Assembly: GCA_964535385.1 (NCBI GenBank)
Contig: CAZHSY010000005.1
Location: 263-64,262, forward strand
DNA length: 64,000 nucleotides
Origin: an uncultured Candidatus Saccharibacteria bacterium
GTDB taxonomy: Bacteria; Patescibacteriota; Saccharimonadia; CAILAD01; GCA-016700035
Direction: 5' to 3'
Shown piece by piece: positions 5,625 through 39,450 of this stretch; position 1 is the stretch's first letter, and each line of letters opens with the position of its first letter. The notes beneath the pieces are model-generated. The model worked only from the letters and a program-made list of their open reading frames with translations, was not told where the DNA came from and made no database searches. The position numbers were made by a program, and so were the translations under genes.

Positions 5625-5735
5625 GGCGTTGTACGCTCCTATGAAGACTCACCGTACGTCGAGTACGCCTCGTCTTCATGCGGGGCTACTGCCTTGACCA
5701 GCATCACTAGAAGATAGCTCGGTACTCAATGAAGG
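5625..5735. repeat. Dispersed intergenic repeat, copy A (core in minus orientation)
   Basis: Shares about 80% identity over ~110 nt with copy B at 10745-10860. Contains the reverse of the family core (ccagcatcactagaag..cggtact) and the internal stem atgaagac/gtcttcat. Confidence 0.6.
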
Positions 5736-5823
5736 ATCATCTTTTTTAAGGGGCTTTGGGCTGTGTTTTTCTCAGGGACGATGATTGATCAGATCCAGAA
5801 TAACAACTGCGCGTCGGAAAAAT

Positions 5824-7551
5824 CTAATTCCCCTTCTTCGCTACCTGCTTGGTCTTGAGGGCCCAGCGTTCGGCGTGATAAAAGCGATCTGACGGGCTGG
5901 TCAAGTAACTGGCCTCAACACCGCTCAAGCGAACGGTATGAGCATACAGGTAATCTGGCGAGTAAAGCAAGAGGGCGGGAGCATCATCGGCCCACAGACT
6001 GACAAATTCCTGATACTTTTTATTACGAAACGCAGGGTCCTTACCTAGCCGAGCCTGTTCGATCAAGCTATCGGCCTTCGGATTGCTGTAGGCTGATAGA
6101 TTCAGGCCAGGGTCAGTCGCCTGACTGGAGTGCCAGAAGCTATAAACATCGCTCTCCCCGCCCATGTCTTGGCCATAGAGCAAGATATCGTACTCGCGAG
6201 GACGGATGTAGTTCTGTTGAAGGCTGAAGCTGTCCACCGTCACCACATCGACTGCCACGCCGGCGTCTTGGAAATTCTTGGCTACTCGAGCTGCCAGTAC
6301 TGGATAATCGCCGCTATTGACCGTCACAAGCTTCAGGCGATTCTTGAAGACACCCTGTAAGGCTGACTGGGCAGCACTGGCGTCATATGCAGGCTTGGTG
6401 GCCTGGGCATTGAAGCCGCCGTAGCCAGGAAGGATTGGGTAATTGATAATACTCCCCTCGTCGTGTAAGACATCATGAAAAATAGCTTCACGATCGACCG
6501 CCTTCGCAAGCGCCCGCCGCACATCTACGCTATCGAGGCCAGTCCGCTTGGTATTAAAATACACACCGACCATCACCGGCAGACGACTGCGTGTAACATC
6601 AAGCTGTGAGTACTTCTCGAGAGTTTTTACTTGCTCCGGCAAAACGCCGGCCATACCGTCAATCTCACGCTTGGCATAGCTATCGAGCATGCCGCGGGCG
6701 TCATCGAACTGCTTGAGCTCAATGGCATCGAGGTAGGCCTTTTGCCCATAATATTCTGGGTTGCGCTTCAGGCGGATAGCCGTCGCCTGTGGATCAAGCG
6801 GCTCCATCATGAATGGACCACTGCCAATCGGCTGTTGATTGTACTCATCGAGTCGCAGCATATTCGGCTGAACATTGCCGAGAACGTGCTCCGGCAGAAT
6901 ACTGACGCGGCCGAGGGCGTTTAGGAAGCCGCTATAGCTGGCTGGCAACACGAACTGAATATGCGTGTCATCGATCTGATTGATCACCACCTTGCCCCAG
7001 CTAGTAGCCAGCAAGGATCGGCTATCCGGGTTTTGGATAGTCTTAAAGGTAAAAATCACGTCCTTGGCCGTGAGTGGCACCCCATCCTGCCACTTCACCC
7101 CCTGTCGCAAGCCAATCGTATAGGTACGCTTATCACTCGAAGCCTCCCAACTAGTCGCAAGATCAGGCTCAATTGTTTCATTGGCCTTGACTCGAATCAG
7201 GCGCGAGAAAACTAGAGACGTCACATCTGAGGTAGCAGTATTATCTTCATAGAGTGGATTTACCAGGTGAACACGGCCAACAATCCCCTCGCGGTAGACA
7301 CCACCACTAGCCGGAACGGTCTTCTGCCATGAGCTGTCCAGATGATCCCAAGCCCTAACCAGACCAAAGATACTGATAAAAGCGATAAAAATCCAAGCCG
7401 CAAACTGCCAACGCATCTGACCGAGTTTCTGCCAGGCACCGTAGACATGGCGCTGTACGTAGTTATGGAGCCAAAGTCGAGCAGCCTTAAACCAACGGAC
7501 GAAGGCCCGGCGAGCTTGGTGGAAACGAAAGACAAAGTAGTTTGAACGCAT
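5824..7551 (-). CDS. ABC transporter substrate-binding protein, family 5 (oligopeptide/dipeptide/nickel type), with N-terminal membrane anchor
   Basis: 575 aa. SBP_bac_5 hallmarks (YTIGLRQGVKWQDGVPLTAKDVIFTF). N-terminal TM helix FAAWIFIAFISIFGLV. The real start may be the internal Met (MRWQF...). Confidence 0.8.
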   Translation of the reverse strand: MRSNYFVFRFHQARRAFVRWFKAARLWLHNYVQRHVYGAWQKLGQMRWQFAAWIFIAFISIFGLVRAWDHLDSSWQKTVPASGGVYREGIVGRVHLVNPLYEDNTATSDVTSLVFSRLIRVKANETIEPDLATSWEASSDKRTYTIGLRQGVKWQDGVPLTAKDVIFTFKTIQNPDSRSLLATSWGKVVINQIDDTHIQFVLPASYSGFLNALGRVSILPEHVLGNVQPNMLRLDEYNQQPIGSGPFMMEPLDPQATAIRLKRNPEYYGQKAYLDAIELKQFDDARGMLDSYAKREIDGMAGVLPEQVKTLEKYSQLDVTRSRLPVMVGVYFNTKRTGLDSVDVRRALAKAVDREAIFHDVLHDEGSIINYPILPGYGGFNAQATKPAYDASAAQSALQGVFKNRLKLVTVNSGDYPVLAARVAKNFQDAGVAVDVVTVDSFSLQQNYIRPREYDILLYGQDMGGESDVYSFWHSSQATDPGLNLSAYSNPKADSLIEQARLGKDPAFRNKKYQEFVSLWADDAPALLLYSPDYLYAHTVRLSGVEASYLTSPSDRFYHAERWALKTKQVAKKGN

Positions 7552-7570
7552 AAATAGAGCGGCAGCGAGA

Positions 7571-7789
7571 CTAGGCCAGGAAAAGCCGAGCCAATAAACT
7601 CACTACCAAAATCACGGCTAGCGCGATCGTGAAACCAAACAACCCGCGCTCTGCTCCGCGTCGGGTTCGATACACATTACTTGAACCACCAAAAGCGTCT
7701 CCTAGACCGCTCCCTTGGCTCTGCAACAATACAGCCACAATCAATAAAATCGAACTGGCTACAGCAATTATATTCAGCGCTACTATCAT
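7571..7789 (-). CDS. secG: Preprotein translocase subunit SecG
   Basis: 72 aa with two TM segments and the SecG loop motif LLQSQGSGLGDAFGGSS. Confidence 0.75.
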   Translation of the reverse strand: MIVALNIIAVASSILLIVAVLLQSQGSGLGDAFGGSSNVYRTRRGAERGLFGFTIALAVILVVSLLARLFLA

Positions 7790-8151
7790 GCGACTGACTC
7801 CTTACCTGGCATCAGAGCTGAGAAGAGATAGTTGACGAGCCAAATGATAATAACGGTGCCAATAGCAGTCGTCCACTTCGTAATCGATAAAGAGGGGTAG
7901 AAGAAGCTTGTGATGTAAAGCATGGCGGCGTTCACGAATAACATGAATATCCCGAGCGTCAAGACAATGGCCGGAAGACTCAAGAGGACTACCAGTGGGC
8001 GGATGAAGGCATTGACGATACCAAAAACAAGAGCTGCAATTACCAGTACGATAATCCGATCATCATACTGAATACGCCCAGCGAAAAGCTGTGCGGCAAT
8101 CCACAAACCTACGAAATTTACTGCCCATGAGAAAAGTATTCGACGGAGCAT
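7786..8151 (-). CDS. DUF360 / phage-holin-4-like 4-TM membrane protein
   Basis: 121 aa with 4 predicted TM helices. Pattern FxGLWIAAQLF...IVNAFIRPLVVLLSLPAIVLTLGIFMLFVNAAML is typical of PF04020. 4-nt overlap with secG. Confidence 0.65.
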   Translation of the reverse strand: MLRRILFSWAVNFVGLWIAAQLFAGRIQYDDRIIVLVIAALVFGIVNAFIRPLVVLLSLPAIVLTLGIFMLFVNAAMLYITSFFYPSLSITKWTTAIGTVIIIWLVNYLFSALMPGKESVA

Positions 8152-8174
8152 AACGGCGTATATTGTATCAAAAA

Positions 8175-8336
8175 TTAGTCCTTTTTGCGAGACTTAGAGG
8201 CGCTACTCGAAACCCTGCCCAACAGAAAAACGCCCTTGCCACTAACCTTCATACGGTTAGTGGCGTATTTTTTGCGATCACGAGCTTCGGCTTTAATGAG
8301 ACTCTGGGTAAGACGAGATTTTTTAGTGCGTGCCAT
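8175..8336 (-). CDS. Small basic protein, 53 aa (MARTKKSRLTQSLIKAEARDRKKYATNRMKVSGKGVFLLGRVSSSASKSRKKD); not in the ORF track because it is under 60 aa
   Basis: My own translation. Sits 24 nt upstream of the DUF360 gene on the same strand. A TATAAT box about 13 nt upstream of the ATG suggests a leaderless or short-leader mRNA. Lys/Arg-rich like a ribosomal or nucleic-acid-binding protein, but I cannot match it to a family. Confidence 0.35.
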   Translation of the reverse strand: MARTKKSRLTQSLIKAEARDRKKYATNRMKVSGKGVFLLGRVSSSASKSRKKD

Positions 8337-10359: not shown

Positions 10360-10641
10360 ATGCACGACGTCAATGCATTCCTGAGGGAGCACGGCCGAAG
10401 CGACCGAGAAGGCCTGGAAAGGCTAGTCTGTGACTATCTCGAAGTCGAATTCGAGATGGACCAGAAGAGCACTTCCTGGACCGACCCCGAGCTACAGCTC
10501 AAGCTGCGCGGCATCGTTCAGCAACTAGAAGTCTTGTTCGGCCTGCTTCCCGAAGACATCGATCTGGTGGCTGATGAGACCGAAGCCTTCCGCGCATACC
10601 TGATCGAACATAAGCCCCAGACTCTGAAGGAGACAGCGTGA
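10360..10641 (+). CDS. Hypothetical acidic protein, 93 aa
   Basis: The track ORF 10246..10641 begins at a TTG. A strong RBS AAGGAGG sits 7 nt before the internal ATG at 10360 (MHDVNAFLREHG...), so I place the start there. No recognisable domain. Confidence 0.45.
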   Translation: MHDVNAFLREHGRSDREGLERLVCDYLEVEFEMDQKSTSWTDPELQLKLRGIVQQLEVLFGLLPEDIDLVADETEAFRAYLIEHKPQTLKETA

Positions 10642-10659: not shown

Positions 10660-10696
10660 GTCCCTGATCGATATCGTAATTCGATCAGGGACTCAT
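10660..10696. terminator. Perfect 13-bp inverted repeat AGTCCCTGATCGA-N9-TCGATCAGGGACT, downstream of the 93-aa gene
   Basis: The palindrome is seen directly. No clean U-tract, so it could be a terminator or a protein-binding site. Confidence 0.4.
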
Positions 10697-10744
10697 CATG
10701 TATGCATTGCCGAGTCCTGGATACGGCTTATTTCCGGCACGCTG

Positions 10745-10860
10745 GGCGGCGGCATACGCTCCTATGAAAGCTCACCGTACTTCATGTACGCCTCACTTTC
10801 AAGCGGGGCTATTTCTTGCCCAGCATCACCAGAAAATAACCCGGTACTTAATAAAGGCGA
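10745..10860. repeat. Dispersed intergenic repeat, copy B
   Basis: Aligns to copy A with covarying stem (A: gaagac/gtcttc; B: gaaagc/actttc). Ends with cccagcatcaccagaaaataacccggtact, the reverse of the family core. Confidence 0.6.
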
Positions 10861-11001
10861 GTGGGCACTGGAAAGAATTTCATCCCAAACCTATTTTGGG
10901 ACGACAAACCCGATTCACCTCGTAGTCAAGGTTCGACCTGAGTGATACTGAGCAAGGTTTTCTTGTGTAAACGACGCTCAGCGCGCTCTAGATCGGGCTG
11001 A

Positions 11002-13881
11002 TTATTTCTTTAGTAGCTTCTTGAGATACTTACCAGTATGACTCTTCTCGATCTTCGCAATGTCCTCGGGGGTGCCTTCGCCAACTATCGTACCACCGCC
11101 AGAGCCACCCTCGGGACCGAGATCAATTAACCAGTCGGCAGATTTAATGACGTCAAGATTGTGCTCGATAATCAGGACACTATTCCCCATCTCGACAAGC
11201 TTCTGAATTACTTCGAGTAACCGATGGACATCTTCAAAATGCAGACCAGTGGTTGGTTCGTCTAAGATATACATAGTTTTACCCGTCGCTCGTCGTGATA
11301 ACTCGGAAGCTAACTTAATGCGCTGCGCTTCACCGCCAGACAGCGTAGTGGCTGGCTGACCAAGCTTGATGTAGCCCAAGCCAACTTCGTTGAGTGTCCC
11401 CAGCTTGCGAGCCACGGTCGGGATATTGCCAAAGAACTCATGGGCTTCCTCGACGGTCATGCCAAGCACATCGGAGATCGTCTTGTCCTTATACGTAATC
11501 TCGAGGGCTTCGCGGTTATACCGCTTCCCGTTACAAGTCTCGCAGGTCACATAAACGTCCGGTAAGAAATGCATCTCAATCTTAATAATCCCGTCACCCT
11601 TACAGGTCTCGCAGCGACCACCTTTAACATTAAACGAGAAGCGTCCGGCCGAGTAGCCACGGATCTTGGCCTCGGGAGTCTGCGCAAACAGATCGCGGAT
11701 ATCAGTGAAGGCTCCGGTGTAGGTTGCCGGGTTTGAGCGCGGGGTTCGACCGATCGGGCTCTGATCGATATCGATGACTTTATCGAGATTTTCGACGCCA
11801 TCGATGCGTTCGTGCTTCCCGGCTGGCTCCTGGCTACGGTGGTATTCCTGACTGAGCTTGCGAGCCAGAATATCGTTAATAAGTGAGCTCTTACCAGAGC
11901 CAGATACACCTGTCACTACGGTCATATTCCCAAGTGGGATCGAGACCGTGACGTTCTGTAAGTTGTGCTCAGTTGCGCCAACGATGGTCAGCGACTTGCC
12001 GTTGCCTTTGCGCCGTGTCTTCGGGACAACGATCTTTTTCTTGCCCGAGAGGTACTGGCCAGTGATCGACTTCGGATTCTTAGCTACCTCGGCTGGAGTA
12101 CCGATAGCCACAACTTCCCCACCGTGTTCGCCGGCGGCTGGGCCGATATCAATTACGCAGTCAGAGGCTAGAATCGTATCCTCATCATGCTCTACCACGA
12201 TCACCGTATTACCGAGATTGCGCAAGCGCTTGAGGGTCTCGATCAAGCGATCATTATCACGCTGATGTAAGCCAATCGATGGCTCATCAAGAATGTATAA
12301 GACGCCCATCAATGAGCTCCCGATTTGGGTAGCCAAACGAATCCGCTGAGCTTCTCCACCAGCCAAGGTGTTAGCGCTACGATTGAGGGTTAGATAGCTT
12401 AAGCCAACGTCGTTTAAGAAAGTTAGGCGCTCACAGATTTCTTTTAAAATCTGCTTAGCGATCTGAGCTTGCTGCTCATTGAGTGTTAGACCGGTGAAAT
12501 AAGCCACGGCCTTCTCAACACTCATCTCGGTCACATCGGCAATTGACTTGTCGTTGACAGTGATCGCCAAGACTTCCGGCTTGAGTCGCTTCCCCTGACA
12601 GACCGGGCAGACCATATTGTTCATATAGCGCTCGATCTCGCCTTTGACAAAATCACTATCGCTCTCACGATAGCGCCGCTCGAGATTCGGGATAACCCCT
12701 TCGAAAGTCGTCTTATAAGTACGGCCACCTGGTCCAGGCACTTCGATCGCCGCGCTACCAGTACCGTACAAGACCGTCGCCAGCTCATCTTGGGTCAGCT
12801 CGTTGACTGGCTTATCGAGTGAAAATTTGTGCGTCTTAGCCACGGCCTGCAGGAGCTTGGTGTACCAAGTCATGCGGCTGGTCGTGCGGCTCCAGGGACG
12901 AATAGCACCTTCACTGATGCTCAAGCGGGCGTTCGGGATCACCAGACCGGGGTCGACCACTAAGAGCGCACCGAGACCGGTGCAGTTTGGACAAGCACCG
13001 TGCGGAGCATTAAAAGAAAACAAGCGAGGCTCAATTTCGGCCAAGGAGAAACCAGAGTCGGTGGTGGCATAGTGTTCGGAGAAGACCTGCTCCTGTTTAG
13101 TTACAAAATCCTGCACGCTCAAGACGCCATCACCCAGGCGAAGTGCCTGCTCGACAGCCTCAGCCAAGCGCTGATGCTCCTCGGTCTCCACAGCTAAGCG
13201 ATCAACTACGACTTCAATGGTGTGCTTCTTCTGCTTCTCGAGCTCACCGACCTCATCGAGATCAATTTCTAGGTCATCGACACGGGCCTTGAGATAACCA
13301 GCCTTAATCAGCTCTTCAATAACATGACGATGTTCGCCCTTCTTGTCCTTGACGACGGTCGCTAGGATAACGACTCGGGTGCCAGCTGGGAAGCCTTCGA
13401 TTGCCTCAACAATCTGGGCTGGCGTCTGACGAGTTAATTCCTCGCCGGTCTTAGGGTCGTGCGGGACACCGATGCGAGCGAAAAGCAGCCGTAAATAATC
13501 ATAGATCTCGGTCACTGTAGCAACGGTAGAGCGTGGATTACGGCTGGTTGATTTCTGGTCAATCGAAATGGCTGGTGAAAGCCCTTCGATCTGATCAACA
13601 TCCGGCTTTTCCATCTGGCCTAAGAATTGACGAGCATAAGCTGAGAGCGACTCGACGTAGCGACGTTGGCCTTCGGCGTAGATGGTATCAAAAGCCAGCG
13701 AGCTCTTCCCAGACCCAGACAGGCCGGTAATAACTACCAGCTTATCCCGCGGGATAGTGACATCGATGTTCTTAAGATTGTTTTCTCGAGCGCCGCGAAT
13801 AACTAATTTATCATGCATAGAGGTCTTGTTGCTCTCACTTGTTACTAAATTCTTATCTGTTGCTCGGACAGGCCACATCAC
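11002..13881 (-). CDS. uvrA: Excinuclease ABC subunit A (UvrA)
   Basis: 959 aa, two ABC ATPase modules. [61 protein letters not shown] and the Zn-finger cysteines are present. The conserved core begins at M22 (MHDKLV, start 13818); the upstream ATGATG follows a TATAAT box. Confidence 0.95.
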
Positions 13882-25424: not shown

Positions 25425-25600
25425 AATCCAGGCCGTGGCTAGTCACGGCCTGGCCTGCGCACAAAAACACTACCCGCCCCATCCTCCTAGTACCCGGTCG
25501 CCCTGAGTGATGCTGGCAAGTACTTCTTCTCTTAGGGTGTATTAAGGTGTATACGCAATTACGCCGCCTGAGCACCGCAGAGAAAAACTACTAGCCAGCG
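25425..25600. repeat. Dispersed intergenic repeat, copy C (core in plus orientation)
   Basis: ggccgtggctagtcacggcctggcctgcgcacaaaaac...tagtacccggtcgccctgagtgatgctggcaagtacttcttctcttagg...ccgcagagaaaaac. About 170 nt, collinear with copy D. Confidence 0.6.
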
Positions 25601-25620
25601 CGCTCTAGACTGGGCGGCTT

Positions 25621-26652
25621 TCAGGAGTCAGTGTTGACCTTAAGCCAAGTGGAGACTTCCATAGCCGCCTTAGCCCCCTCGCCGGCCGCCACGATAATCT
25701 GCTTGTGCGGCACATCGGTCACATCGCCAGCCGCAAAAACGCCTTCAACCGACGTCATATTGTGTTTATCAATAATAATTTCATGATTGTCGTTGAGTTT
25801 CACAAAGCCTTCTGCGAAGTCATCAGCCGGTATAGAGCCAGCTTCAATCATCACACCTTGTACCGCCAGCTCCTTCTCCTTGCCCGTCGACTTCTCCTGC
25901 ACGGTGATGGCCTGCACGACGCTGTCTCCGGTGATCCGCAATGTCTGGGCATCATTGATTATGCGAATATTGGCTGCTGCCCGAGCCTTGTCGACCATCA
26001 CTTCATCGGCCGTCAATTCAGCCGTAAGATTAATAATATATACCTGCGTAGCAATCTTCTCGACTACAAAAGCAGCGTCAAGGGCCGAGTTGCCACCACC
26101 GATGATAGCCACGGCTTTATCTTTAAATAATGGACCGTCACACCACGCACAGTACGTTACACCCTTATGTAGGAATTCTGTCTCACCCGGAATACCAAGC
26201 TGCCTAGGCTGTTTTCCGCTAGATATAATTACCGCCCGAGCAGCCTGACTACTGCCGTCTGCTAGTACCAGGCGAAATCCTTGCTTACCAAGGGAAACAA
26301 TTTCGCGCACACCATCCTTAGTGAGTTTAAGAGTAATATCTTCCCGGAAAGCTTGGAGATGATCCTGAAAATGCCGGGTCAGCTCAGCTCCAGTCAGCAG
26401 AGTATAGCCAAGGTAGTTTTCGACATCGCTCGACCAAGCCGTCTGACCACCAATGTCCTTGGTAATCAGCAGCGTCTTCAGCTTCTTGCGAGCTAAATAT
26501 ATACAGGCTGCCATGCCAGCCGGTCCGCTGCCGATGACGGCGACATCATGCTGTGACGGTCGATCAGCCGGATTAGCCACAGCCAAAACAGCCGCCTGAC
26601 TACGCTGAGTCGGCGCAGTCGTCAAAATAGATGAGGACGTAGTGGCTTCCAT
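25621..26652 (-). CDS. trxB: Thioredoxin-disulfide reductase
   Basis: FAD motif VAVIGSGPAGMAACIY, redox-active CAWCDG, NADPH motif IIGGGNSALDAAF. Confidence 0.9.
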   Translation of the reverse strand: MEATTSSSILTTAPTQRSQAAVLAVANPADRPSQHDVAVIGSGPAGMAACIYLARKKLKTLLITKDIGGQTAWSSDVENYLGYTLLTGAELTRHFQDHLQAFREDITLKLTKDGVREIVSLGKQGFRLVLADGSSQAARAVIISSGKQPRQLGIPGETEFLHKGVTYCAWCDGPLFKDKAVAIIGGGNSALDAAFVVEKIATQVYIINLTAELTADEVMVDKARAAANIRIINDAQTLRITGDSVVQAITVQEKSTGKEKELAVQGVMIEAGSIPADDFAEGFVKLNDNHEIIIDKHNMTSVEGVFAAGDVTDVPHKQIIVAAGEGAKAAMEVSTWLKVNTDS

Positions 26653-27805: not shown

Positions 27806-27905
27806 GAAAATCCTTTCATTACTTTAGTAACTAGGAGTTAGAAGCTTAGAATTAGCATTCTTGTAGTAACCGCTGACTTCTATCTTCCAATTCTTAACTT
27901 CTAAC

Positions 27906-30729: not shown

Positions 30730-31358
30730 GGATTGAGGGCTCCGATCAGCTCGTGATAACGCGTTAAGACCGAATCAGCACTAAAGAGATAGCTATTCGT
30801 ACAGACAAAATCAAATTTGGCCTTAGCGATCTTATTCAGGGTGGCTTCCTCGACGCCACCATCCAGGCCAACTTCGAGATTACCATCCAGCTCTCGCACC
30901 TCGGCGACTCGCTTGAGTACACTTGGCTGGAGTTTCTGCCCGGCGAAGCCAGCTGGGTAGGCCATGAGCAGCACAGTTGAGAGCTTCTCAAGATTATCAT
31001 TGACGACACTCAGGTCAGTGCCGGGGTTAATAGCAATGCCAGCCCGGATACCACCAGCTGTAATCTTAGCGATCGCCTCGCTCACACCCTGCTCAGCCTC
31101 AGCCTGCACAATCACCGTGTAGGGCCGCAAGCGAATCGCCTGAGAGATATACTCCAGGGGCCGCTGCACCATTAAATGAATATCGACCTTCAAACTATCT
31201 GGCGGATCAATCTCCTGGGGCTGAATTGTACGATTATCGACAAATCTGCCGTCAATCACATCGAGCTGGAAGCGGCCGGTCAGCTGTCGAACTTGGGCTA
31301 CCTTCCGTCGGTACTCGCCAGCAGTCGTTTCTAAAATAGCTGGTACTATCTTGGTCAT
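30726..31358 (-). CDS. rpe: Ribulose-phosphate 3-epimerase
   Basis: 210 aa. IVPAIL...DVIDGRFVDN...HLMV are the RPE motifs. 4-nt overlap with tktA. Confidence 0.88.
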   Translation of the reverse strand: MTKIVPAILETTAGEYRRKVAQVRQLTGRFQLDVIDGRFVDNRTIQPQEIDPPDSLKVDIHLMVQRPLEYISQAIRLRPYTVIVQAEAEQGVSEAIAKITAGGIRAGIAINPGTDLSVVNDNLEKLSTVLLMAYPAGFAGQKLQPSVLKRVAEVRELDGNLEVGLDGGVEEATLNKIAKAKFDFVCTNSYLFSADSVLTRYHELIGALNP

Positions 31359-31819
31359 TAACCCTCCTCTAGTCGAGCGATTTGCTCAATCCGCCGCTTG
31401 TGTCGCGCTTCACCCGAGAAAGGCGTGCTTAAGAAGCGACGCGTGATTTTGATGAGGTCGGCCTCTGATTCAAACCGAGCTGGTAAAGCTAGGATATTGG
31501 CGTCATTATCTTGGCGGGTTTCTTCGGCCACTACCTCGTCCCAGACAACGGCTGCGCGAATGCCGTCAATCTTATTAGCCGCTATCGCCATGCCCTCCCC
31601 CGAGCCGCAGACCAGTACACCGAGGCTACCGGAGTCTGTGACGACTTTAATTGCGGTCTGTCTGGCGTGAGGAGTGAAGTCGTCACTCGGATCAAGCCGG
31701 TCTGGCCCAAGATCCACAATCCTGAATTCACCCTCCAGTTCATTCACGATTTTCCTCTTAGCTGTCAGCCCGGCGTGATCGGCTGCAATATAGACAGTGT
31801 GTGGTTTGAAGTCTGCCAT
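31358..31819 (-). CDS. rpiB: Ribose-5-phosphate isomerase B (RpiB/LacAB family)
   Basis: 153 aa. VYIAADHAGL...VLVCGSGEGMAIAANK. Confidence 0.88.
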   Translation of the reverse strand: MADFKPHTVYIAADHAGLTAKRKIVNELEGEFRIVDLGPDRLDPSDDFTPHARQTAIKVVTDSGSLGVLVCGSGEGMAIAANKIDGIRAAVVWDEVVAEETRQDNDANILALPARFESEADLIKITRRFLSTPFSGEARHKRRIEQIARLEEG

Positions 31820-31860
31820 GCCTGTATCTAGTATATAGGAGTTGGCAGTTAGGGGCTAGA

Positions 31861-32325
31861 TTAGCCCACGCCTCGCCACCGAAAACACTGCTGAGATTTC
31901 GGTGAACCATGGAGTTTGAGCAAAGCTTGATAGGTTCCAAAATTGCGAAGGCTAAGGCGCTGATCGATCTGCTTACGCATGTGCGCGTTGAGCCGCCGAA
32001 GATATGGCCAAAAATCAACGCCCAGGTAGCTTATGCCACGACGAGTACGATCAATGTGATCAAGTCGTGGATTAATCGTCAGCTTGAGCTCAGCCTGCAA
32101 GAAATAACTAGCTAATCTGCGCGTGGGATCAAGGGCTTGACCACGAGTGTGAAAACTCAACCAATCATCACCGTAGCGCATATAGGCCGCTGGTTTGAGC
32201 TGATGCACCATAAAACGATCGAACTCATGCAAGTAAATATTGACGAATATTTGGCTGGTTAAGCTACCAATCGGAATAGCCATCGACTGTTTGGCTTTTG
32301 ATACTATCCGGCTTTCGCGCCTCAC
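31861..32325 (-). pseudogene. Reverse transcriptase, C-terminal fragment (motifs 4-7 only) with a diversity-generating-retroelement (DGR) type signature
   Basis: 154-aa ORF with a GTG start. It contains AIPIGSLTSQIFVNIYLHEFDRF (DGR RTs carry IGxxxSQ where group II intron RTs carry SP) and YMRYGDDWLSF (the YxDD catalytic box). Fingers motifs 1-3 are absent. All three upstream frames are closed by stops within 270 nt. Confidence 0.6.
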
Positions 32326-32600
32326 GCATGAGGTGGAAATATCATTTCTTTCAGCACTCTTGTAATAGCACTCATATCAAAAACGTGGGGTGAAGGGGTT
32401 CTAAACGGATAGACATTTCCAAGAGAAACTGCGTGGAATGCGTACACAGTCCACGTTCACCAAGGAAACTTGCTTTATAGCCTATCAATCGTCGTGCATT
32501 TGGGGCACCGTGCGATTGACCGTTGCAATCGTAGGGCTACGTACCCCAATCGTTGGTTGTAAAAGGATCTAAAGAAAAATGAAGGAGCAAAGACTAAGGC

Positions 32601-33140
32601 CTACCCCACCACCAGCCGTGCCTGGTAGTCATCCTCGACAAACGACCCGCCCAAGTTCGGCTCGCCACCGAAGTACACGTAGGAATCCGGAACCTCGGAA
32701 TAGCCATCGACTGCTTGAGGCTCCAAATCAAAATGACGAATGTAGGTACGGTCGAAAGCACCACTATCAGACAGTTCGTCGCCGCCAGCTCGCAATGCAT
32801 ACCAATAGGTCACTGCATCGAGTGCCGACGGTACCCGGAGATGAAGCTCTGGCTGATCAGTTTGCAGGCGAGCCAAGGTTTGTCGCTGCTCACGGGCCGT
32901 TTGATAGCCCAAGACTCGAGACTGGCATGAAGGTATTAGGCTAAAACGGACGGGTATACCTGTAGCCGATCCTGATAATTCCTGGCCACTGTAGTGCCCG
33001 GGCTTATACAGCTCCTCATAGATACGCGTGGGGTATGGTTGGGTCAGCCCAAAGTTCTCCGCCAGACTGACCACGGCCTCTGGGCTGGTCTCGACTTCGG
33101 GAGTTGCCACGACCCGGAAGCTCGCACCATCCGATAGCAT
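32601..33140 (-). CDS. Hypothetical acidic protein, 179 aa, immediately upstream of the RT fragment
   Basis: Intact ORF. The C-terminal tail YFGGEPNLGGSFVEDDYQARLVVG loosely resembles the end of C-type-lectin-fold DGR variable regions (GGSW...GFRxV). Confidence 0.4.
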   Translation of the reverse strand: MLSDGASFRVVATPEVETSPEAVVSLAENFGLTQPYPTRIYEELYKPGHYSGQELSGSATGIPVRFSLIPSCQSRVLGYQTAREQRQTLARLQTDQPELHLRVPSALDAVTYWYALRAGGDELSDSGAFDRTYIRHFDLEPQAVDGYSEVPDSYVYFGGEPNLGGSFVEDDYQARLVVG

Positions 33141-33204
33141 AGTTTTCGCAACATATTCATAGACGCCTCGGGTCAGCCATTCCTGATGCTTTTGTTCGTA
33201 AAAT

Positions 33205-33250
33205 GTCGCTAGCCAAGGCCTGGCCTGACATGAAAAACCAATACCCGACT
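33205..33250. repeat. Partial copy of the dispersed repeat (5' module aggcctggcctgacatgaaaaaccaatacccg)
   Basis: Same module as 34391-34425. Flanks gap on the downstream side. Confidence 0.5.
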
Positions 33251-34268
33251 ACTTCTTGAGTTTTCTGCCGATCAGGGACACCAACTCAACCAGCCGGTTT
33301 GAGTACCCCCACTCGTTGTCGTACCAGGCAACGACTTTCACCATGTTACCACCGACGACATTGGTAAGTTTGGTGTCGACAACCCCGCTGTGGGGATCAC
33401 CAATGAAGTCACTCGAGACGAGTTCTTCCTCGGTGTAGGTTAAGACACCACGGAAACGCTCTTGGCGTGAAGCTTTTTTAATGACCGCGTTAACTTCTTC
33501 GATTGTAGTGTTTTTCTTGGTCAAAAACGTAAAATCAGACATCGAAACAACCGGGGTCGGGACTCGTACCGACAGTCCCTGGAAAACGCCCTCAAGAGCC
33601 GGCAAGGCTTTAGCAGCTGCGAGCGTCGCACCCGTACTGGTCGGCACAATATTCTCAGCGGCATTACGACCTTCACGCAGATCTTTGGCTGGAGCATCCT
33701 GCAAGACCTGGCTGGCAGTATAACTATGGATGGTCGTCATCATAGCCTTCTCGATACCAAACTCACGCTCGATAATGGCTGCAACCGGCGTAATGTTATT
33801 GGTCGTACAACTAGCATTTGAGAAGACATTAGTCTTAGCCACATCGATGTCTTGCTCATTCACACTTATGACGTTGGTCGACACACTCGTATCGTCGCCC
33901 TTGGCCGGAGCTGAGATCACGACCTTTTTGGCGCCGGCCTTAATGTGGAGACTGGCATCCTCCCCCTTTACAAAGCGACCAGTGGACTCAATGACAACAT
34001 CGATATTCATGTGCTTCCATGGAAGGAGCGCCGGATCCTTCTCGGCGGTAACGGCAATCTTAATGCCATCGACTATAATGTGCTTCTCGTCATATTCGAC
34101 TTTCTTATGATACAGGCCGTAATTACTATCGTGCTTAAGTAGATGAGCCAGGGTCTTGGTGTCGGTTAGGTCATTAATAGCAATTATTTTGGTGTCAGGA
34201 CGGGCAAAGGCAATCTTAAAAGCATTGCGGCCAATGCGGCCAAACCCGTTAATAGCGACGCGAGTCAT
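33249..34268 (-). CDS. gap: Glyceraldehyde-3-phosphate dehydrogenase (type I)
   Basis: 339 aa. N-terminus VAINGFGRIGRNAF, catalytic ASCTTN, and C-terminus WYDNEWGYSNR. Confidence 0.95.
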   Translation of the reverse strand: MTRVAINGFGRIGRNAFKIAFARPDTKIIAINDLTDTKTLAHLLKHDSNYGLYHKKVEYDEKHIIVDGIKIAVTAEKDPALLPWKHMNIDVVIESTGRFVKGEDASLHIKAGAKKVVISAPAKGDDTSVSTNVISVNEQDIDVAKTNVFSNASCTTNNITPVAAIIEREFGIEKAMMTTIHSYTASQVLQDAPAKDLREGRNAAENIVPTSTGATLAAAKALPALEGVFQGLSVRVPTPVVSMSDFTFLTKKNTTIEEVNAVIKKASRQERFRGVLTYTEEELVSSDFIGDPHSGVVDTKLTNVVGGNMVKVVAWYDNEWGYSNRLVELVSLIGRKLKK

Positions 34269-34364
34269 AGAGTATGAATCCTTTGTTTAGTTAAAGCGCT
34301 TATGCTCACTATTGTACGGGGTTCATACATGAATGTCATGTTTTGTTAGGGGCTAGGATGTGGC

Positions 34365-34560
34365 AATCACGCTGCAGGCCAGGCCTTGGCTCGCCAGGGC
34401 CTGGCCTGACACGAAAACCAATGCCCACCCCCTCTCAGGTAAGTACCCGGTCGTCTTGGGTGATACTAGTCGGTATTTCTTCTCCTAGGAACGGAGTAAA
34501 CTGTACAGATAAGCACATCGTCGAGTACCGCAGAGAAAAATGCCGGTTAGCTCGTACTAA
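34365..34560. repeat. Dispersed intergenic repeat, copy D (core in plus orientation)
   Basis: ggcctggcctgacacgaaaaccaatgcccacc...gtaagtacccggtcgtcttgggtgatactagtcggtatttcttctcctagg...ccgcagagaaaaatg. Collinear with copy C. Confidence 0.6.
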
Positions 34561-34913
34561 GACGGGTGGCTCTCTTTACCCCTCATATCACTATGCGGCT
34601 GACAGACCCCATCTTTACAATCCTCGCCTTGCATAAAAGCTCGTAGTATCGCCTCTTCCTGAACGCCACATAGTGCCTGGTGAGTTTGCGTATTCACAAA
34701 GGCCGGCACACCAGCATAACCACCGCAAGCTTCACCGATGATGTCGCTGTATTGAGCCATGATTTTCTCATTTTCAGGGTTCTGCCAGACTTCAAGCTTC
34801 GTAATCTCTACCTCGAGCTCGTCTTCTAGCTGCTGAATGATCGGTCGCATACTAACGCAATGCGGGCAGGTCTCACCATAGAACTCAATAATATGTTCAA
34901 GCTTCTTCTTCAT
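34557..34913 (-). CDS. Thioredoxin/glutaredoxin-fold protein (CPHC active site)
   Basis: Start placed at the internal Met (MKKKLEHIIEFYGETCPHCVSM). Last gene of the DsbA-VKOR operon. Confidence 0.65.
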   Translation of the reverse strand: MKKKLEHIIEFYGETCPHCVSMRPIIQQLEDELEVEITKLEVWQNPENEKIMAQYSDIIGEACGGYAGVPAFVNTQTHQALCGVQEEAILRAFMQGEDCKDGVCQPHSDMRGKESHPS

Positions 34914-35382
34914 CGCTCGCCTCCTCCTTATTGTCGTGATTAACTGAACGTGATTGCAGATAGGCCACAATCGCTAATATAAAAATCAACGTCGATGACA
35001 AGCCAGACAAAAGACAGTACTGACACCAAGCGTGGATTACAAATGCCTGCAAGAAAGTCAGGAAGACCGAGCTAGCAAAGCCAAGACTCGCCCAGACCAG
35101 CAATGGCAGGCGTGGCAAACGAGTCTGGTTTGTAACGGCGAAAATAACCGCAAAGAGAATTACCCCATAAAAGATAATACCTAGAGCTGAAGTCGGAATC
35201 GGTCCAATGCTGGCCCATCGGCTGGTCAGAACCGTCTCACAGCCCTGCGTGAACGTGCACGGCAAGGTCAGTGCTTTGTAGTGCTCAATAGTCAGTAGTA
35301 TAGAGTCAGCCACCCCGCCAAGAGCGATCAGGCCAACAAGCGCCTCAATCCACTCTGGCCTAGCCTGATCTCGGGCCTGCAA
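34897..35382 (-). CDS. Vitamin K epoxide reductase (VKOR) family membrane protein
   Basis: 161 aa, 4-5 TM helices. Loop cysteine pair (PCTFTQGC) and TM CxxC (AWCQYC). Confidence 0.78.
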   Translation of the reverse strand: MQARDQARPEWIEALVGLIALGGVADSILLTIEHYKALTLPCTFTQGCETVLTSRWASIGPIPTSALGIIFYGVILFAVIFAVTNQTRLPRLPLLVWASLGFASSVFLTFLQAFVIHAWCQYCLLSGLSSTLIFILAIVAYLQSRSVNHDNKEEASDEEEA

Positions 35383-35385
35383 AAT

Positions 35386-36072
35386 CTACTGTCCGTTTCC
35401 GTTTACGAGACTTTCGATCTTAGTCTTGAGGCCGGCCGGACCACCAGATGTCTGATAAGCTTCACCATTGATAAAGAATGACGGCGTGCCAGAGAGTTTA
35501 ATCTCCTTCCCAAACGCTAGATCACGATCGATGTTTGCCTTACCCGCCTGATTGTCATAGTCCTTCGTAAAGGTATCAACATTAAGATTCAGCTCTCGAG
35601 CATAGCCAACAAATTTATCTTTCGGGTCAGACAGGCTCACCCATTCATCCTGCTTCTCGTACAGGGCGTCATGCATTTCCCAGAATTTGCCTTGATTAGC
35701 AGCAGCCTCGGAAGCGTAGGCAGCGTTGCGTGCGTTCTTATGAGGCTGCGGGAAGAGTGGGAAATGCTTCCATACGAACAACATCTTATCTGAATACTTC
35801 TGGCGCAACTCCTCAATAGTAGATTCATACTGCTTACAGGCTGGACATTCAAAATCACCAAACTCCGTCAGTACAACAGTAGCCTGCCCATTGCCATACT
35901 TCTGTCCTTCTTTGAGTTGATCTTTTTGCTTCTGCGTCAAAGCTTGCGGGGTTGGCGAGGCTGTATCTTCTGGCTTGGAATCATTACCACTGCTCACGAG
36001 TGCGCGAATAGCAAAGAACAATATAACAACAATGATGACCGTAAAGATGACCGGCGCGAGATATTTTTTCAT
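35386..36072 (-). CDS. DsbA-like thiol:disulfide oxidoreductase (Thioredoxin_4) with N-terminal anchor
   Basis: 228 aa. EFGDFECPACKQYE (CPAC). N-terminal TM helix. Confidence 0.8.
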   Translation of the reverse strand: MKKYLAPVIFTVIIVVILFFAIRALVSSGNDSKPEDTASPTPQALTQKQKDQLKEGQKYGNGQATVVLTEFGDFECPACKQYESTIEELRQKYSDKMLFVWKHFPLFPQPHKNARNAAYASEAAANQGKFWEMHDALYEKQDEWVSLSDPKDKFVGYARELNLNVDTFTKDYDNQAGKANIDRDLAFGKEIKLSGTPSFFINGEAYQTSGGPAGLKTKIESLVNGNGQ

Positions 36073-36386
36073 ACGCCTGATTGTATCAAACCTGATAGCA
36101 TCAGGCCATTGTCTACCGACCTAATATCTAGATCTAGACTGCAAAAACAGCCAAACTAATTGCGGCCAATACTATAGCTACACCTGCAATGATGCATATA
36201 TCGATAAAACTTATCTGACTCTTAAAGAATTTCATACGTCCAATCTACTTATGCTTAAGTTACTGGAATTTCTCAATAAATTCAAATCTACACCTGAAAA
36301 ACTACGCCTAGTCAAACCATCACCAGCACTATAGATCGGCACAGACTAGACAGGGGGGTTTCTTTCTGGTAACGTAGACACTCGTT

Positions 36387-36560
36387 ATGGCAAAGAAACA
36401 AGCGCGCCAACTTATCGTTCTCAAGAACCCGGAAACGGGCAGTTTGTATTACACAAAAAAGAACCCGATTAACTCACCAGACAAGCTCACCATGAAGAAG
36501 TATGATCCGAAGCTTCGCAAGGTAGCAGAATTTACCGAAACTAAAATGAAGCTGGGCTAA
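36387..36560 (+). CDS. rpmG: 50S ribosomal protein L33 (cysteine-less form)
   Basis: My own translation: MAKKQARQLIVLKNPETGSLYYTKKNPINSPDKLTMKKYDPKLRKVAEFTETKMKLG (57 aa). Matches the L33 pattern ..YTT.KN.RN.P.KLELKKYDP.LRKH....E.K. Not in the ORF track because it is under 60 aa. Confidence 0.72.
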   Translation: MAKKQARQLIVLKNPETGSLYYTKKNPINSPDKLTMKKYDPKLRKVAEFTETKMKLG

Positions 36561-36591
36561 TCCTAGTCCACTTAAGAACTTCTCTCAAAGC

Positions 36592-36626
36592 AAATACCCA
36601 TCCGGCAGATGGGTATTTTTTATTTC
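36592..36626 (+). terminator. Rho-independent terminator after rpmG
   Basis: Hairpin ATACCCATC-cggca-GATGGGTAT followed by TTTTTTATTT. Confidence 0.65.
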
Positions 36627-36729
36627 ACAATGAAACTTATACTTGGTTTTCTAGCGTAAAACCAGTAAAATACCCGGTGGATTAGCGATTTCCAGCTTAT
36701 TCGTACTACGCACCTACACGGGAGAATAC

Positions 36730-37401
36730 ATGTCTGTGATTGTCACGATTGACGGAGGCGCCGGCACCGGCACCTCTAGCTTGGCGGCTGGCCTAGCTGA
36801 AAAACTCGGCTCCCCAGCCCTCAACAGCGGTCACCTCTACCGAGGCCTGACACTGTTGGCTCTGGATGAACTCCGCACTGCTGAGGCATTCCCTGGCCAT
36901 ACCGAGCGCATCATTGACCTCGCCCAGAGCATCAACTTTGGCTTCAAGGGTGGTTCGGTCATCGAGATCAACGGCCTGGGCGTCGAAGAGTCAGCTCTGC
37001 GATCGGTCAGCGAAGCTGTGCCGCATCTGGCTCACATCCCTGAGGTTCGCTTGGCTCTGAGGATTTGGCAGCACCGCTTCGCAGAAGATCATGAGTGCCT
37101 GGTGGCAGAGGGGCGCGACCTCGGAACGGTCGTCTTCCCAGATGCCACACGTAAGATCTTCCTGGTCTGCGACGATGAGGAACGCGCACGGCGTCGTTCC
37201 AATCAGGCCGGGCGACTCATCACTGTCGGGGAACTGCTCGAACGTGACCGCCTGGACAGCGAGCGCGATGACTCACCAATGCGACACGGTGGCGATGCCA
37301 TCATCTTCGACACCACCAAGACCAGCGTCCCAGCCCTGGTTAAGAACGTCATCAATTCCCTGCGAGGAGTCCCCGCTTTCGAACGGCTCTTCGCCGAGTA
37401 G
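36730..37401 (+). CDS. cmk: Cytidylate kinase
   Basis: IVTIDGGAGTGTSSLAAGLAEKLG...LNSGHLYR P-loop/NMP-binding. 223 aa. Confidence 0.88.
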   Translation: MSVIVTIDGGAGTGTSSLAAGLAEKLGSPALNSGHLYRGLTLLALDELRTAEAFPGHTERIIDLAQSINFGFKGGSVIEINGLGVEESALRSVSEAVPHLAHIPEVRLALRIWQHRFAEDHECLVAEGRDLGTVVFPDATRKIFLVCDDEERARRRSNQAGRLITVGELLERDRLDSERDDSPMRHGGDAIIFDTTKTSVPALVKNVINSLRGVPAFERLFAE

Positions 37402-37420
37402 TCGGTTCGCCGATTACCAA

Positions 37421-37452
37421 GGGGGTAACCATCCGGTTACCCCCTTTTTCTT
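37421..37452 (+). terminator. Rho-independent terminator after cmk
   Basis: GGGGGTAACC-atccg-GGTTACCCCC followed by TTTTTCTTTC. Confidence 0.65.
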
Positions 37453-37504
37453 TCATTTAGTCAAAACTAAACCTGTTTTTATTTTCATAGTCCAACCATT
37501 CCCA

Positions 37505-37625
37505 TCTGGTACCCGGTCATTATGAGTGAGCCAAAACTGACTTTCTCTGGTAGGAGCGCAGAGCCTCCAGGCCTGTACCCGATCACCCTGAGTGATGCTG
37601 GTGAGTATTTATCCTCGAGGAGTGC
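37505..37625. repeat. Dispersed repeat, copy E (two half-sites GTACCCGGTCATTATGAGTGAG ... GTACCCGATCACCCTGAGTGATGCTGG)
   Basis: Collinear with copy F at 39362-39450 and shares the family core with C and D. Confidence 0.6.
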
Positions 37626-37706
37626 AGCAAGGCGTATGTATAATTACGGTGTCGATCACCGGAGAGGGAAATGCTCACCAGCGCGCTCAAGAGCGAGCGG
37701 CCTTCT

Positions 37707-38510
37707 TCATATCTCTAAAGTAATACTGACGGGGCAATGATCCGAGCCCATAACCTCCGGGTGAATGTCTGCGGCGACCACCTTATCCTTCAGACTTTCG
37801 GAAACCAGCACATAATCAATCCGCCAGCCAACATTATTCGCGCGCGCGCCACCAAAGTGTGACCACCAGGTATAGTAACCGCTACCTTCTTTAAACATTC
37901 GCAGAGTATCTATGAAACCAGCATCAATAAAATTCTGAAAGCCTTGGCGTTCTTCTGCCGTGAAACCCTTTTTGCCAACATTCGGCTTGGGCCGGGCTAG
38001 ATCATCTTCGGTGTGAGCCACGTTCAAGTCCCCACAGAAGACCACCGGCTTGGTCTTCTCTAGAAGTTTACAGTACTCCAGAAAAACTGGATCCCAGTGT
38101 TTATGACGAAGCGGGATTCGAGACAAATCATCCTTGGCGTTTGGCGTGTAGACGGTTACCACCCAAAACTTCTCGAACTCCGCCGCCATAATTCGCCCTT
38201 CGCTAGCCGAGTCTCCATAAGCATCGGCTAAGGTGTACTTTTGTAATAACTCTTTAGGCAATCCATTGATAACCGATAGTGGCTTTAGCTTTGTAAAAAT
38301 CGCTGTCCCTGAGTAGCCTTTGCGTTCGGCTGAATTCCAGTACTCTTCATAGCCGAGCAGATCGACCTCGGCTTGGCCTTGTTGGGCCTTGGTCTCTTGT
38401 AGGCACCAAATATCGGGCTTCTCTGCATCAATAAATGGTTTTAAAGCATCCTTACGCACCACTGCGCGGATACCATTTACATTCCAGGAGTAAATTCGAG
38501 TTTTTGTCAT
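37707..38510 (-). CDS. xth: Exodeoxyribonuclease III / AP endonuclease
   Basis: Conserved start MTKTRIYSWNVNGIRA (the track ORF has a 16-aa upstream extension). ...LQETK..., C-terminal SDHCPV. Confidence 0.88.
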   Translation of the reverse strand: MTKTRIYSWNVNGIRAVVRKDALKPFIDAEKPDIWCLQETKAQQGQAEVDLLGYEEYWNSAERKGYSGTAIFTKLKPLSVINGLPKELLQKYTLADAYGDSASEGRIMAAEFEKFWVVTVYTPNAKDDLSRIPLRHKHWDPVFLEYCKLLEKTKPVVFCGDLNVAHTEDDLARPKPNVGKKGFTAEERQGFQNFIDAGFIDTLRMFKEGSGYYTWWSHFGGARANNVGWRIDYVLVSESLKDKVVAADIHPEVMGSDHCPVSITLEI

Positions 38511-38564
38511 AGCAGTAGTATAGCAAATGAAAGCCCCTCCGAGTTGCGGAGGGGCCAAATTACC

Positions 38565-38825
38565 CTATCGGGTAGGCGCTAGTCGGCGACGCCGCGCAAA
38601 AGCGAACTCATCGGTCAGCTGGGTATGGAAATCTTGACGCATCTTCCGTGCGATCAGCTCGATCAGGGGCCGAGCCGTAGCAGTCACCTCAAGACTACCC
38701 TCCAAGCCTCGCCTCACCTGGAAGCGTGGGTCACCCACTCCCCGAGCGCAAATCAGCCGGCGCAGATCGGCCGGTGACATGTCCTCGCCAAAATCACTGC
38801 GCCGTTCGACGATCAGAATATACAT
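38565..38825 (-). CDS. Hypothetical 86-aa protein
   Basis: Intact ORF only. No RBS or motif I recognise. Possibly a remnant. Confidence 0.25.
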   Translation of the reverse strand: MYILIVERRSDFGEDMSPADLRRLICARGVGDPRFQVRRGLEGSLEVTATARPLIELIARKMRQDFHTQLTDEFAFARRRRLAPTR

Positions 38826-38833
38826 GATACCTC

Positions 38834-39055
38834 CTAGTGAGCGATGAAGTTACGTATGATCAACGGTGGTTTATAGCTGATTGATTCGATGGGGCTCAGA
38901 GCACGCCCTGTCACCAAGCGTTCACTCCAGACCTCCAGCGATGTGCGCTCGGCTACGATATGAAAGCAAGTGAAATCCAGATCGAACGGTGTCTTACCAA
39001 GGCCAAAGCCTGTGACTCCAGGCCACGACCCACTTCGCCAAGCTTCATTGGCCAA
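38834..39055 (-). CDS. Hypothetical 73-aa protein
   Basis: Intact ORF only. 8 nt upstream of the 86-aa ORF. Confidence 0.25.
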   Translation of the reverse strand: MANEAWRSGSWPGVTGFGLGKTPFDLDFTCFHIVAERTSLEVWSERLVTGRALSPIESISYKPPLIIRNFIAH

Positions 39056-39149
39056 TCATAGACATTGCTGCTCCAGCCGGCTTGAGGCTTCGGTCTGCCG
39101 CTTAAGATAAATAGGTACTCCACGTACACTCCTCCTTGATTCTATCCGT

Positions 39150-39188
39150 AGAAACAAAAACGCCCGGAGGAATCCGGACGGTGGTTGG
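39150..39188 (-). terminator. Rho-independent terminator on the minus strand (CCGGAUUCCUCCGG hairpin + GCGUUUUUGUUUCU)
   Basis: Minus-strand reading ccgtCCGGAttccTCCGGgcgtttttgtttct. It terminates a transcript coming from the 39.2-39.8 kb region. Confidence 0.5.
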
Positions 39189-39361
39189 TCGATGACGTGT
39201 TACTCAGAGTAAGCTTATTCGTCAATCCTAATCCGAACCTCCGCCCGTTCCCGGACGATAAGCTTACAAAGCACGTTTAGGATGTGATCGAAATACTTCA
39301 CGTTCATCAGCTTACGCTTATAGTCAGGAAAATGCAAGCTACTAAAATTAACATCTAACCC

Positions 39362-39450
39362 TTACTCAGTACCCGGTTATTTTGAGTGAGTTCCAAGTGA
39401 CTTTCTGGCAGGATCTTGAGGCCTTCGGATATGTACCCGATTGTCTTAGA
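39362..39450. repeat. Dispersed repeat, copy F
   Basis: cagtacccggttattttgagtgagttccaagtgactttctggcaggatcttgaggccttcggatatgtacccgattgtcttagag, collinear with copy E. Confidence 0.6.

Follow-up and report, generated by a model that had tools for sequence, protein, structure and literature searches.

REPINs, which are among the closest described counterparts of the element treated here, carry conserved inverted ends around a variable spacer, fold as hairpins with a 5' single-stranded tail, show frequent compensatory changes and leave behind singlets as dead remnants (PMC3116915). REPs are reported to lie mostly downstream of coding regions and to bear an unpaired tag at one end (PMC3733652), and for ERIC sequences an orientation-dependent behaviour has been reported (PMC3184786). 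Here we describe a family of dispersed, imperfectly palindromic repeats in a 64,000-nt stretch of DNA from an uncultured member of Candidatus Saccharibacteria (contig CAZHSY010000005.1, positions 263-64,262 of the forward strand, assembly GCA_964535385.1; hereafter the window). In Saccharibacteria and other Patescibacteria the genome is reduced to about 1 Mb, genes are separated by very short spacers, and one would not expect to find dispersed repeats. Six full copies (A, B, C, D, F and H) and four fragments (E1, G1, G2 and P) occur in the window, all of them between 5.6 and 39.5 kb, and loci of relatives add three more full copies, one (X78) from the locus L078 and two from L080, giving nine overall. 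We read these elements as probably being lineage-specific, non-autonomous palindromic repeats of the REPIN/ERIC/bcr1 kind. Our literature searches turned up neither REP-, REPIN- or MITE-like families described from this phylum nor any paper on repeats in Saccharibacteria.

Results

A full copy is an imperfect palindrome of 125-135 nt (H is shorter), whose right end is an imperfect inverted copy of its left end. Read in the orientation of copy C, the unit begins with an unpaired (A/T)GTAC tag and continues with CCCGGT, 5-7 variable nucleotides, TGAGTGATGCTGG, a variable interior, CCAGCGCGCTCTAGA, a variable segment and GGGCGGC; copies A and B have this layout in reverse complement relative to C, D and F. 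The left TGAGTGATGCTGG pairs with the right CCAGCGCGCTC, and rods form in all nine copies, each folding as a single rod of about 45 pairs with free energies of -29 to -74 kcal/mol and z scores down to -10.6. Three features recur in most copies, other lineages included: a helix that sets G-U-G-(bulged A)-U-G-C-U against A-G-C-G-C-G-C and contains two U-G pairs, an AA bulge (CAAGG) and an apical hairpin, the last being carried by the otherwise variable interior as GCGTAY-loop-RTACG..GTCGAG (GCGUAC-loop-GUACG in RNA form). The tag tetranucleotide is unpaired and conserved as GTAC, with GTTC in X78 and GTAG only in H, and the outermost arm segments vary among copies yet remain complementary. Two palindromes, AGCGCGCT and TCTAGA, lie in the right end, where a local stem of 4-5 bp is possible in C and H; the left end shows no self-complementarity. 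Furthermore, each GTAC tag has a C-rich stretch 5-15 nt ahead of it (CCCCATCCTCC, CCCACCCCCTCTC, CCATTCCCATC and CTAACCCTTAC; for example at 25470-25486, 34424-34439, 37487-37505 and 39352-39366). On the gene-sense strand the same stretch reads as GGAGG-like purine runs.

A preliminary description of this DNA had proposed a dispersed intergenic family, and related sequence is indeed present at all seven sites that it listed; the shared core is exact at 25490-25516 and recurs with two mismatches at 37575-37601, where none would be expected by chance. BLASTN within the window aligned A with B (79% over 135 nt, E value 1e-27), C with D (71% over 200 nt, 8e-23), C with F (73% over 133 nt, 6e-19) and E1 with G1 (72% over 75 nt, 9e-8). 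By pairwise identity the full copies fall into three subfamilies, namely A/B (0.77), C/D/F/X78 (0.63-0.72) and the two L080 copies (0.73); outside the shared core and apex, identity between subfamilies is close to the 0.50 obtained with shuffled sequences.

The rods are a genuine structure, and compensatory change keeps their pairing intact. Since MAFFT, given all subfamilies together, placed the 3' arms of the L080 copies wrongly, we scored covariation in two alignments instead, one of seven copies (A, B, C, D, F, H and X78) and one of the C/D/F/X78 subfamily. In the outer stem of the seven-copy alignment, 14 of 23 pairs have changed on both sides, and paired cells make up 86.9%, compared with 73.4% in shuffles and 34-41% in slid controls; in the subfamily rod, 16 of 41 pairs have changed on both sides, with 93.3% paired cells, compared with 82.9% in shuffles and 36-48% in slid controls. 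No shuffle out of 500 attained the observed value on any of the five measures for the seven-copy outer stem, and for the subfamily none did so on four measures and three did on the fifth. The compensatory change between A and B that had been pointed out earlier also appears in the folds (AUGAAGAC/GUCUUCAU in A, UGAAAGU/GCUUUCA in B). Copies that are 28-37% apart retain -55 to -74 kcal/mol, whereas random substitution of 20-30% of the positions in C, A or X78 lowers stability to about -37 to -41 kcal/mol (standard deviation about 6). Among the copies folded only D (-41 kcal/mol) and H look decayed; most copies are maintained, not merely decaying.

With respect to strand, the minimum free energy prefers the GTAC strand in seven of the nine copies, by 5-20 kcal/mol, and the conserved core forms there an unbroken helix that includes two U-G pairs and a single bulged A, whereas on the gene-sense strand the conserved helix contains two C-A mismatches. 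G-U counts in the folds show no strand difference (41 vs 36), nor do the register-neutral transition mismatches of the arms, of which 32 are wobble-type on the GTAC strand and 29 on the other (p = 0.8). The data are equally compatible with a hairpin in single-stranded DNA and with one in RNA of either strand. Of the earlier claim of a conserved RNA structure, the secondary structure with its double-sided changes stands, and RNA is one of the candidate levels at which it may be conserved.

Promoter-like boxes of the form TAGTCA-16 nt-TAWWWT precede fragments only, namely E1 (TATTTT) and G1 (TAAAAT); none was noticed when the 100 nt preceding A, B, C, D and H were read, the formal promoter scan covering 25000-40000 only, where 18 promoter-like sites compare with 15.4 in shuffles and are thus not enriched. 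No T-run follows the window rods on either strand, as it would in an intrinsic terminator, and the inner stem lies between A5 and T5 tracts in the L080 copies only.

The distribution of the repeats was followed in loci of relatives, retrieved with gap and uvrA as anchors. The nearest named homologs of the window's gap and uvrA proteins belong to Candidatus Saccharibacteria/Saccharimonadales, in line with the host, and exact matches to them are confined to one NCBI record and Logan assemblies. The loci L078 and L094 represent one lineage (the L078 lineage, gap identity 94%), L080 and L095 a second (the L080 lineage, 90%), and L084, L085 and L086 are more distant (81-83%; 58 kb in total). Synonymous sites were compared over window regions 11002-13881 and 33249-34268 with L094/L095 and L078/L080, respectively: the proteins of these closest relatives are 89-95% identical, and their four-fold degenerate sites are saturated (identity 0.37-0.40; 0.305 for L084). 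As the family is recognisable despite this saturation, it is either constrained or spread after the lineages split.

The L078 lineage has one full copy, X78, at the place where D sits (between the thioredoxin-like gene and gap), with stems wholly different in sequence and a perfect 15-bp helix; this lineage also has remnants after gap, and in L094 the ortholog of A is decayed but alignable. In the L080 lineage two diverged full copies directly follow the stop codons of gap and grx, and the 58 kb of L084, L085 and L086 contain no copies. After gap, L080 thus has a full copy where the window and L078 have remnants; the copy after trxB is present in the window and not in L080; H and B, which lie after uvrA, are restricted to the window lineage and are not found downstream of uvrA in L094 or L095; and the copy after grx is restricted to L080, its place being taken by a canonical bidirectional terminator in the window, L084 and L085. 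In the window this is a perfect 20-bp inverted repeat between A7 and T7 just after grx (25053-25097), resembling a bidirectional intrinsic terminator, with equivalents in L084 and L085 and a rod in L080. Spacer lengths differ in parallel: gap-rpiB measures 12-54 nt in distant relatives and 221 nt in L080, the thioredoxin-like gene-gap spacer 70-73 nt in L084 and L085 and 288 nt in the window, and the spacer between trxB and the next gene 66-94 nt in distant relatives and 265 nt in the window. Since the repeats are absent from distant relatives and occupy partly different gene ends between lineages, they are lineage-specific insertions that were gained, lost and sometimes decayed. The idea of a conserved cis-regulatory RNA is weakened by the same spacers being empty in distant relatives, by gene ends that differ by lineage and by the decay of some copies.

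At the gap-rpiB junction the window has two open reading frames (ORFs) in 31861-33140 (179 and 154 aa, function not assigned), and L078 likewise has one of 656 aa in 11202-13172. The presence of lineage-specific ORFs, each beside repeat remnants, suggests that this junction is an insertion hot spot.

The position of the repeats relative to genes follows a rule. Eight of the nine full copies point their right end at the 3' end of a gene (five of six in the window, three of three in relatives), so that orientation is not free, although copies had earlier been described as occurring in both orientations relative to flanking genes. Furthermore, in seven of the nine this end overlaps the stop codon or lies within about 13 nt of it, the abutted genes being trxB (C), a thioredoxin-like gene (D and X78), an exo/endonuclease-phosphatase gene (F), uvrA (H), and gap and grx (the two L080 copies). 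B keeps the rule on the opposite strand, as it faces a small + strand gene (10360-10641) with a terminator hairpin (10661-10695) between the two, and A is the sole exception to it. Because the C-terminal lengths of UvrA and TrxB are normal, the insertions lie just past native stop codons; closeness to stop codons may in part be a product of short ancestral spacers.

The small gene faced by B, between uvrC and uvrA, encodes 93 aa from an ATG preceded by AAGGAGG, a strong ribosome-binding site, and L094 holds a 94-aa gene (13027-13311) in the matching place and orientation, a match based on position only. The uvrA ORF as listed (GTG at 13881) is some 20 codons longer than the start used by relatives (MHDKL) would make it.

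A covariance model (CM) built from the seven copies and searched across the window, also with filters off, found no further full copy beyond those of Table 1. The table revises several details of the preliminary description. The limits given there for three copies were too short, as C reaches 25622, D about 34576 and F 37705, and an eighth site, H (10922-11005), which abuts the uvrA stop, had been overlooked. What had been called two-half-site versions, E and F, are a left-end-only fragment (E1) ahead of a full copy (F), and G consists of two left-end fragments. The partial copy noted at 33205-33250 does contain related sequence, which is the accessory GC-hairpin module alone (P). Both modules ascribed jointly to C and D were recovered: the 5' module, a GC-rich hairpin separate from the rod and found with C, D and P, has the GGCCTGGCCTG hairpin in C as well as D, and the 3' module CCGCAGAGAAAAA, likewise present in both, is the 3' strand of the inner stem paired with TTCTTCTC. 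E1 and G1 have no significant fold (z -0.4 and -1.3).

Table 1. Copies, fragments and accessory modules of the repeat family in the window (window coordinates; bits are CM scores)
Feature	Position	Strand	Description	Score and fold	Setting
Copy A	5595..5728	-	full rod, A/B subfamily	93.6 bits; -63.6 kcal/mol, z -6.0	between solute-binding-protein gene stop (5824) and tRNA-Leu (5574-5488)
Copy B	10719..10850	-	full rod, 77-79% identity to A		
Copy H	10922..11005	+	rod shortened by interior deletion	61.7 bits, E 1e-14	right end overlaps uvrA stop (11002-11004)
Accessory 5' module of C	25428..25486	+	GC-rich hairpin CCAGGCCGTG/CACGGCCTGG, then A/C-rich leader	z -2.8	
Copy C	25487..25622	+	full rod nearest family consensus	134 bits; -60.3 kcal/mol, z -5.5	right end at trxB stop (25621-25623)
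Fragment P	33205..33247	+	accessory 5' module alone: right hairpin half and leader		1 nt from gap stop (33249-33251)
Accessory 5' module of D	34374..34439	+	hairpin with perfect 11-bp core CAGGCCAGGCC/GGCCTGGCCTG, and leader	z -4.5	just upstream of conserved gap promoter ATGACA-17-TACAAT (34339-34311, - strand)
Copy D	34440..34576	+	full-length, most degraded rod	111.8 bits; -41.4 kcal/mol, z -1.7	right end contains thioredoxin-like gene stop (34557-34559)
Fragment E1	37506..37574	+	left end only (GTACCCGGTCATTATGAGTGAG...)		before full copy F
Copy F	37572..37705	+	full rod	131 bits; -54.7 kcal/mol	right end 2 nt short of exo/endonuclease-phosphatase stop (37707-37709)
Fragments G1, G2	39366-39432, 39433-39465	+	tandem left-end-only pieces	10.2 bits	hairpin 39470-39512 next

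Searches for known families returned no counterpart. With Rfam 15 at the gathering score only tRNA-Leu passes, and permissive scans of three copies gave chance matches of 12-17 bits, so that no Rfam family matches the repeat. The exact pattern GTACCCGGTNNNNNTGAGTGA found 76 single matches in public representative genomes (the host species not among them), in unrelated phyla and all due to chance; a two-box pattern found two matches in metagenomes, both in high-GC coding sequence and both chance; and seven matches in viral contigs were likewise chance, three of them being one phage coding sequence. Two further ideas were rejected: a small peptide, as the ORFs inside A and B are unequal in length and have no ribosome-binding site, and a K-turn or box C/D for GUGAUGC, as the partner strand has no GA.

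Other features of the window were recorded alongside the repeats. A type I restriction-modification operon occupies 1000-4807 (- strand), with a RhuM-family gene between hsdS (1000-2196) and hsdM (3236-4807). About 1 kb without an ORF of at least 80 aa (38826-39866) holds the G fragments, a terminator-like site on the - strand (39180-39161) and the hairpin that follows G2, and its counterpart in relatives has ORFs of just 52-89 aa. Finally, a 25-nt palindrome (88% complementary) at 55920-55970, between a padR-family gene (55347-55892, - strand) and the divergent ORF 56028-56780, is probably a PadR operator.

Discussion

If the repeats are lineage-specific, non-autonomous palindromes, as we think probable, their copies would have been spread in trans by an enzyme encoded elsewhere, which would act on single-stranded DNA and recognise the hairpin and the 5' tag there, much as REP-associated transposases recognise REPINs, and the left-end-only fragments would be dead remnants. 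After insertion, the rod is likely to be co-transcribed into the 3' end of the upstream mRNA, because it begins 0-13 nt after the stop codon, and could there provide a stable 3' structure serving as exonuclease barrier, processing site or terminator; in the L080 subfamily, the A- and U-tracts of the inner stem resemble a bidirectional terminator, at a place where relatives have a normal one. The fallback offered in the preliminary description, a decaying REP-like repeat, comes closest to the truth in its REP-like part and errs in calling the repeat decaying, most copies being maintained.

Several points weigh against this interpretation. No target-site duplication was found, the longest shared words in the flanks being 3-6 nt and no better than shuffles in eight of nine copies, and no transposase, RAYT, Y1/HUH or integrase domain was seen in the scanned window ORFs or is listed for the L078, L080, L094 and L095 loci. 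The window also contains no parent insertion sequence with which terminal inverted repeats could be shared, and since the copies lack such a duplication and differ from each other in their outermost arms, the family falls outside the definition of a MITE. Identity within subfamilies is 63-79% and gives no sign of very recent transposition. The tag is GTAC here, compared with GTAG or CGTC in described REPs, and, unlike those of REPs, the conserved ends do not as a whole appear to be short self-palindromes. Furthermore, template switching in quasi-palindromes can mimic compensatory change without selection, and a terminator role is unsupported for the window copies, as no U-tract follows their rods. 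Lastly, about 150 kb of this clade were covered, so that copies are counted for that much sequence and not per genome.

A second explanation, which we consider unlikely, is that the repeat is a host-selected, cis-acting RNA of the 3' untranslated region (UTR), acting on the gene-sense strand to stabilise, process or terminate the mRNA or to couple it to translation termination, its mobility being incidental. Such a role would account for the closeness of the right end to stop codons and for the orientation fixed in eight of nine copies, the opposite-strand copy B included, as well as for a structure kept beyond neutral expectation, and it is favoured by the L080 lineage, where the copy after grx replaces a canonical terminator and the inner stems have A5/T5 flanks. 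However, the genes served (uvrA, trxB, gap, grx and a nuclease) are unrelated, the same genes in relatives do without the element, and decayed copies exist (D, H and the L094 ortholog of A). In addition, the most conserved helix has its two C-A mismatches on precisely the gene-sense strand, and short ancestral spacers by themselves would put any insertion near a stop codon.

Alternatively, the copies could be independently transcribed small RNA genes on the GTAC strand, antisense to or convergent with the gene end, whose C-rich leader could pair with ribosome-binding sites. The better folding of this strand in seven of nine copies, the continuous helix of its core, the promoter-like boxes before E1 and G1 and the C-rich stretch upstream of each tag all point in that direction. 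We nonetheless regard it as improbable, since such boxes were not noticed on reading upstream of the five window copies inspected (the formal scan being limited as described), promoter-like sites are hardly more frequent than in shuffles, no terminator follows the rods, the arm mismatches are unbiased by strand and Rfam has no match.

It is very improbable that the repeats are neutral relics of an old burst, now decaying and with neither present function nor mobility, whose arm complementarity was preserved mechanically through quasi-palindrome template switching or intra-hairpin repair. The degraded state of D, H and the L094 ortholog of A, the frequency of fragments (E1, G1, G2, P and the L078 remnants after gap) and the limited identity among copies would fit such a history, but while synonymous sites are saturated, the core, the bulged A, the AA bulge and the apical GCGUAC/GUACG persist in three lineages, and the gain of H and B postdates the split from the L078 lineage. 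That the repeats serve an integron-type system as attC-like recombination sites, the adjacent genes being its cassettes, is hardly credible, because, for all that they are imperfect palindromes of similar size in fixed orientation directly after stop codons, with a conserved extrahelical base, variable arms that remain complementary and extra genes at the gap-rpiB junction that differ by lineage, direct reading found no RYYYAAC/GTTRRRY boxes at their ends, neither the window nor the relatives' loci has an integrase, and the neighbours are large housekeeping genes whose order is conserved.

A more far-reaching proposal, for which we see only a modest chance, is that the family represents an undescribed functional class of structured nucleic acid in Patescibacteria, marked by the U-G/bulged-A core, the AA bulge and the GCGUAC-loop-GUACG apex. 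A dedicated protein would recognise the rods and set them precisely at stop codons in one orientation, and the family could then be either a new mobilisation mechanism coupled to gene ends or a new 3'-end or antisense RNA system in an ultra-small genome. Should the placement at stop codons be mechanistic and not due to lack of space, it would point to a link between insertion of the element and gene ends. The repeat stretches spacers from 12-95 nt to some 220-290 nt, which suggests that selfish or co-opted palindromes can persist in extremely reduced genomes. From a practical point of view, it also provides a marker to tell apart strains and lineages of this uncultured clade.

Returning to the probable reading as non-autonomous palindromic repeats, three groups of described elements can be compared with the family. 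The bcr1 element of the Bacillus cereus group (about 155 bp) is likewise dispersed and lineage-specific, with positions that vary between strains, and its compensatory changes hold a structure at the RNA level, some copies being less stable; however, it consists of two independent stem-loops with flanking 5-bp direct repeats (PMC3184786), whereas the family described here is one rod and has no flanking repeat. ERIC/IRU sequences of Enterobacteriaceae (imperfect palindromes of about 127 bp) and the Correia/NEMIS elements of Neisseria resemble it in size and in being full-length imperfect palindromes; they are also intergenic, co-transcribed at gene 3' ends and variably present among relatives (PMC3184786). 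There is no sequence similarity between these elements and our family, and only they have terminal inverted repeats that are conserved between copies together with a TA target duplication, whereas here there is neither such a duplication nor conservation of the outermost arms.

In comparison with REPINs, the unit is longer (125-135 nt) and its copies have diverged far more. REPINs with their RAYT transposases are known from Pseudomonas and Enterobacteria (PMC3116915, PMC3733652), whereas the present host belongs to the reduced-genome Patescibacteria, and the partner RAYT seen for REPINs was not seen in the scanned window and the relatives' loci. The likeness to REPINs nonetheless extends over much of the architecture and natural history of the family: inverted conserved ends enclose a less conserved spacer, the whole unit folds as a hairpin (REPINs measure about 100 nt), compensatory changes are common, the 5' tag is unpaired, single-end remnants occur, copies lie downstream of genes, and the elements persist vertically with lineage-specific populations.

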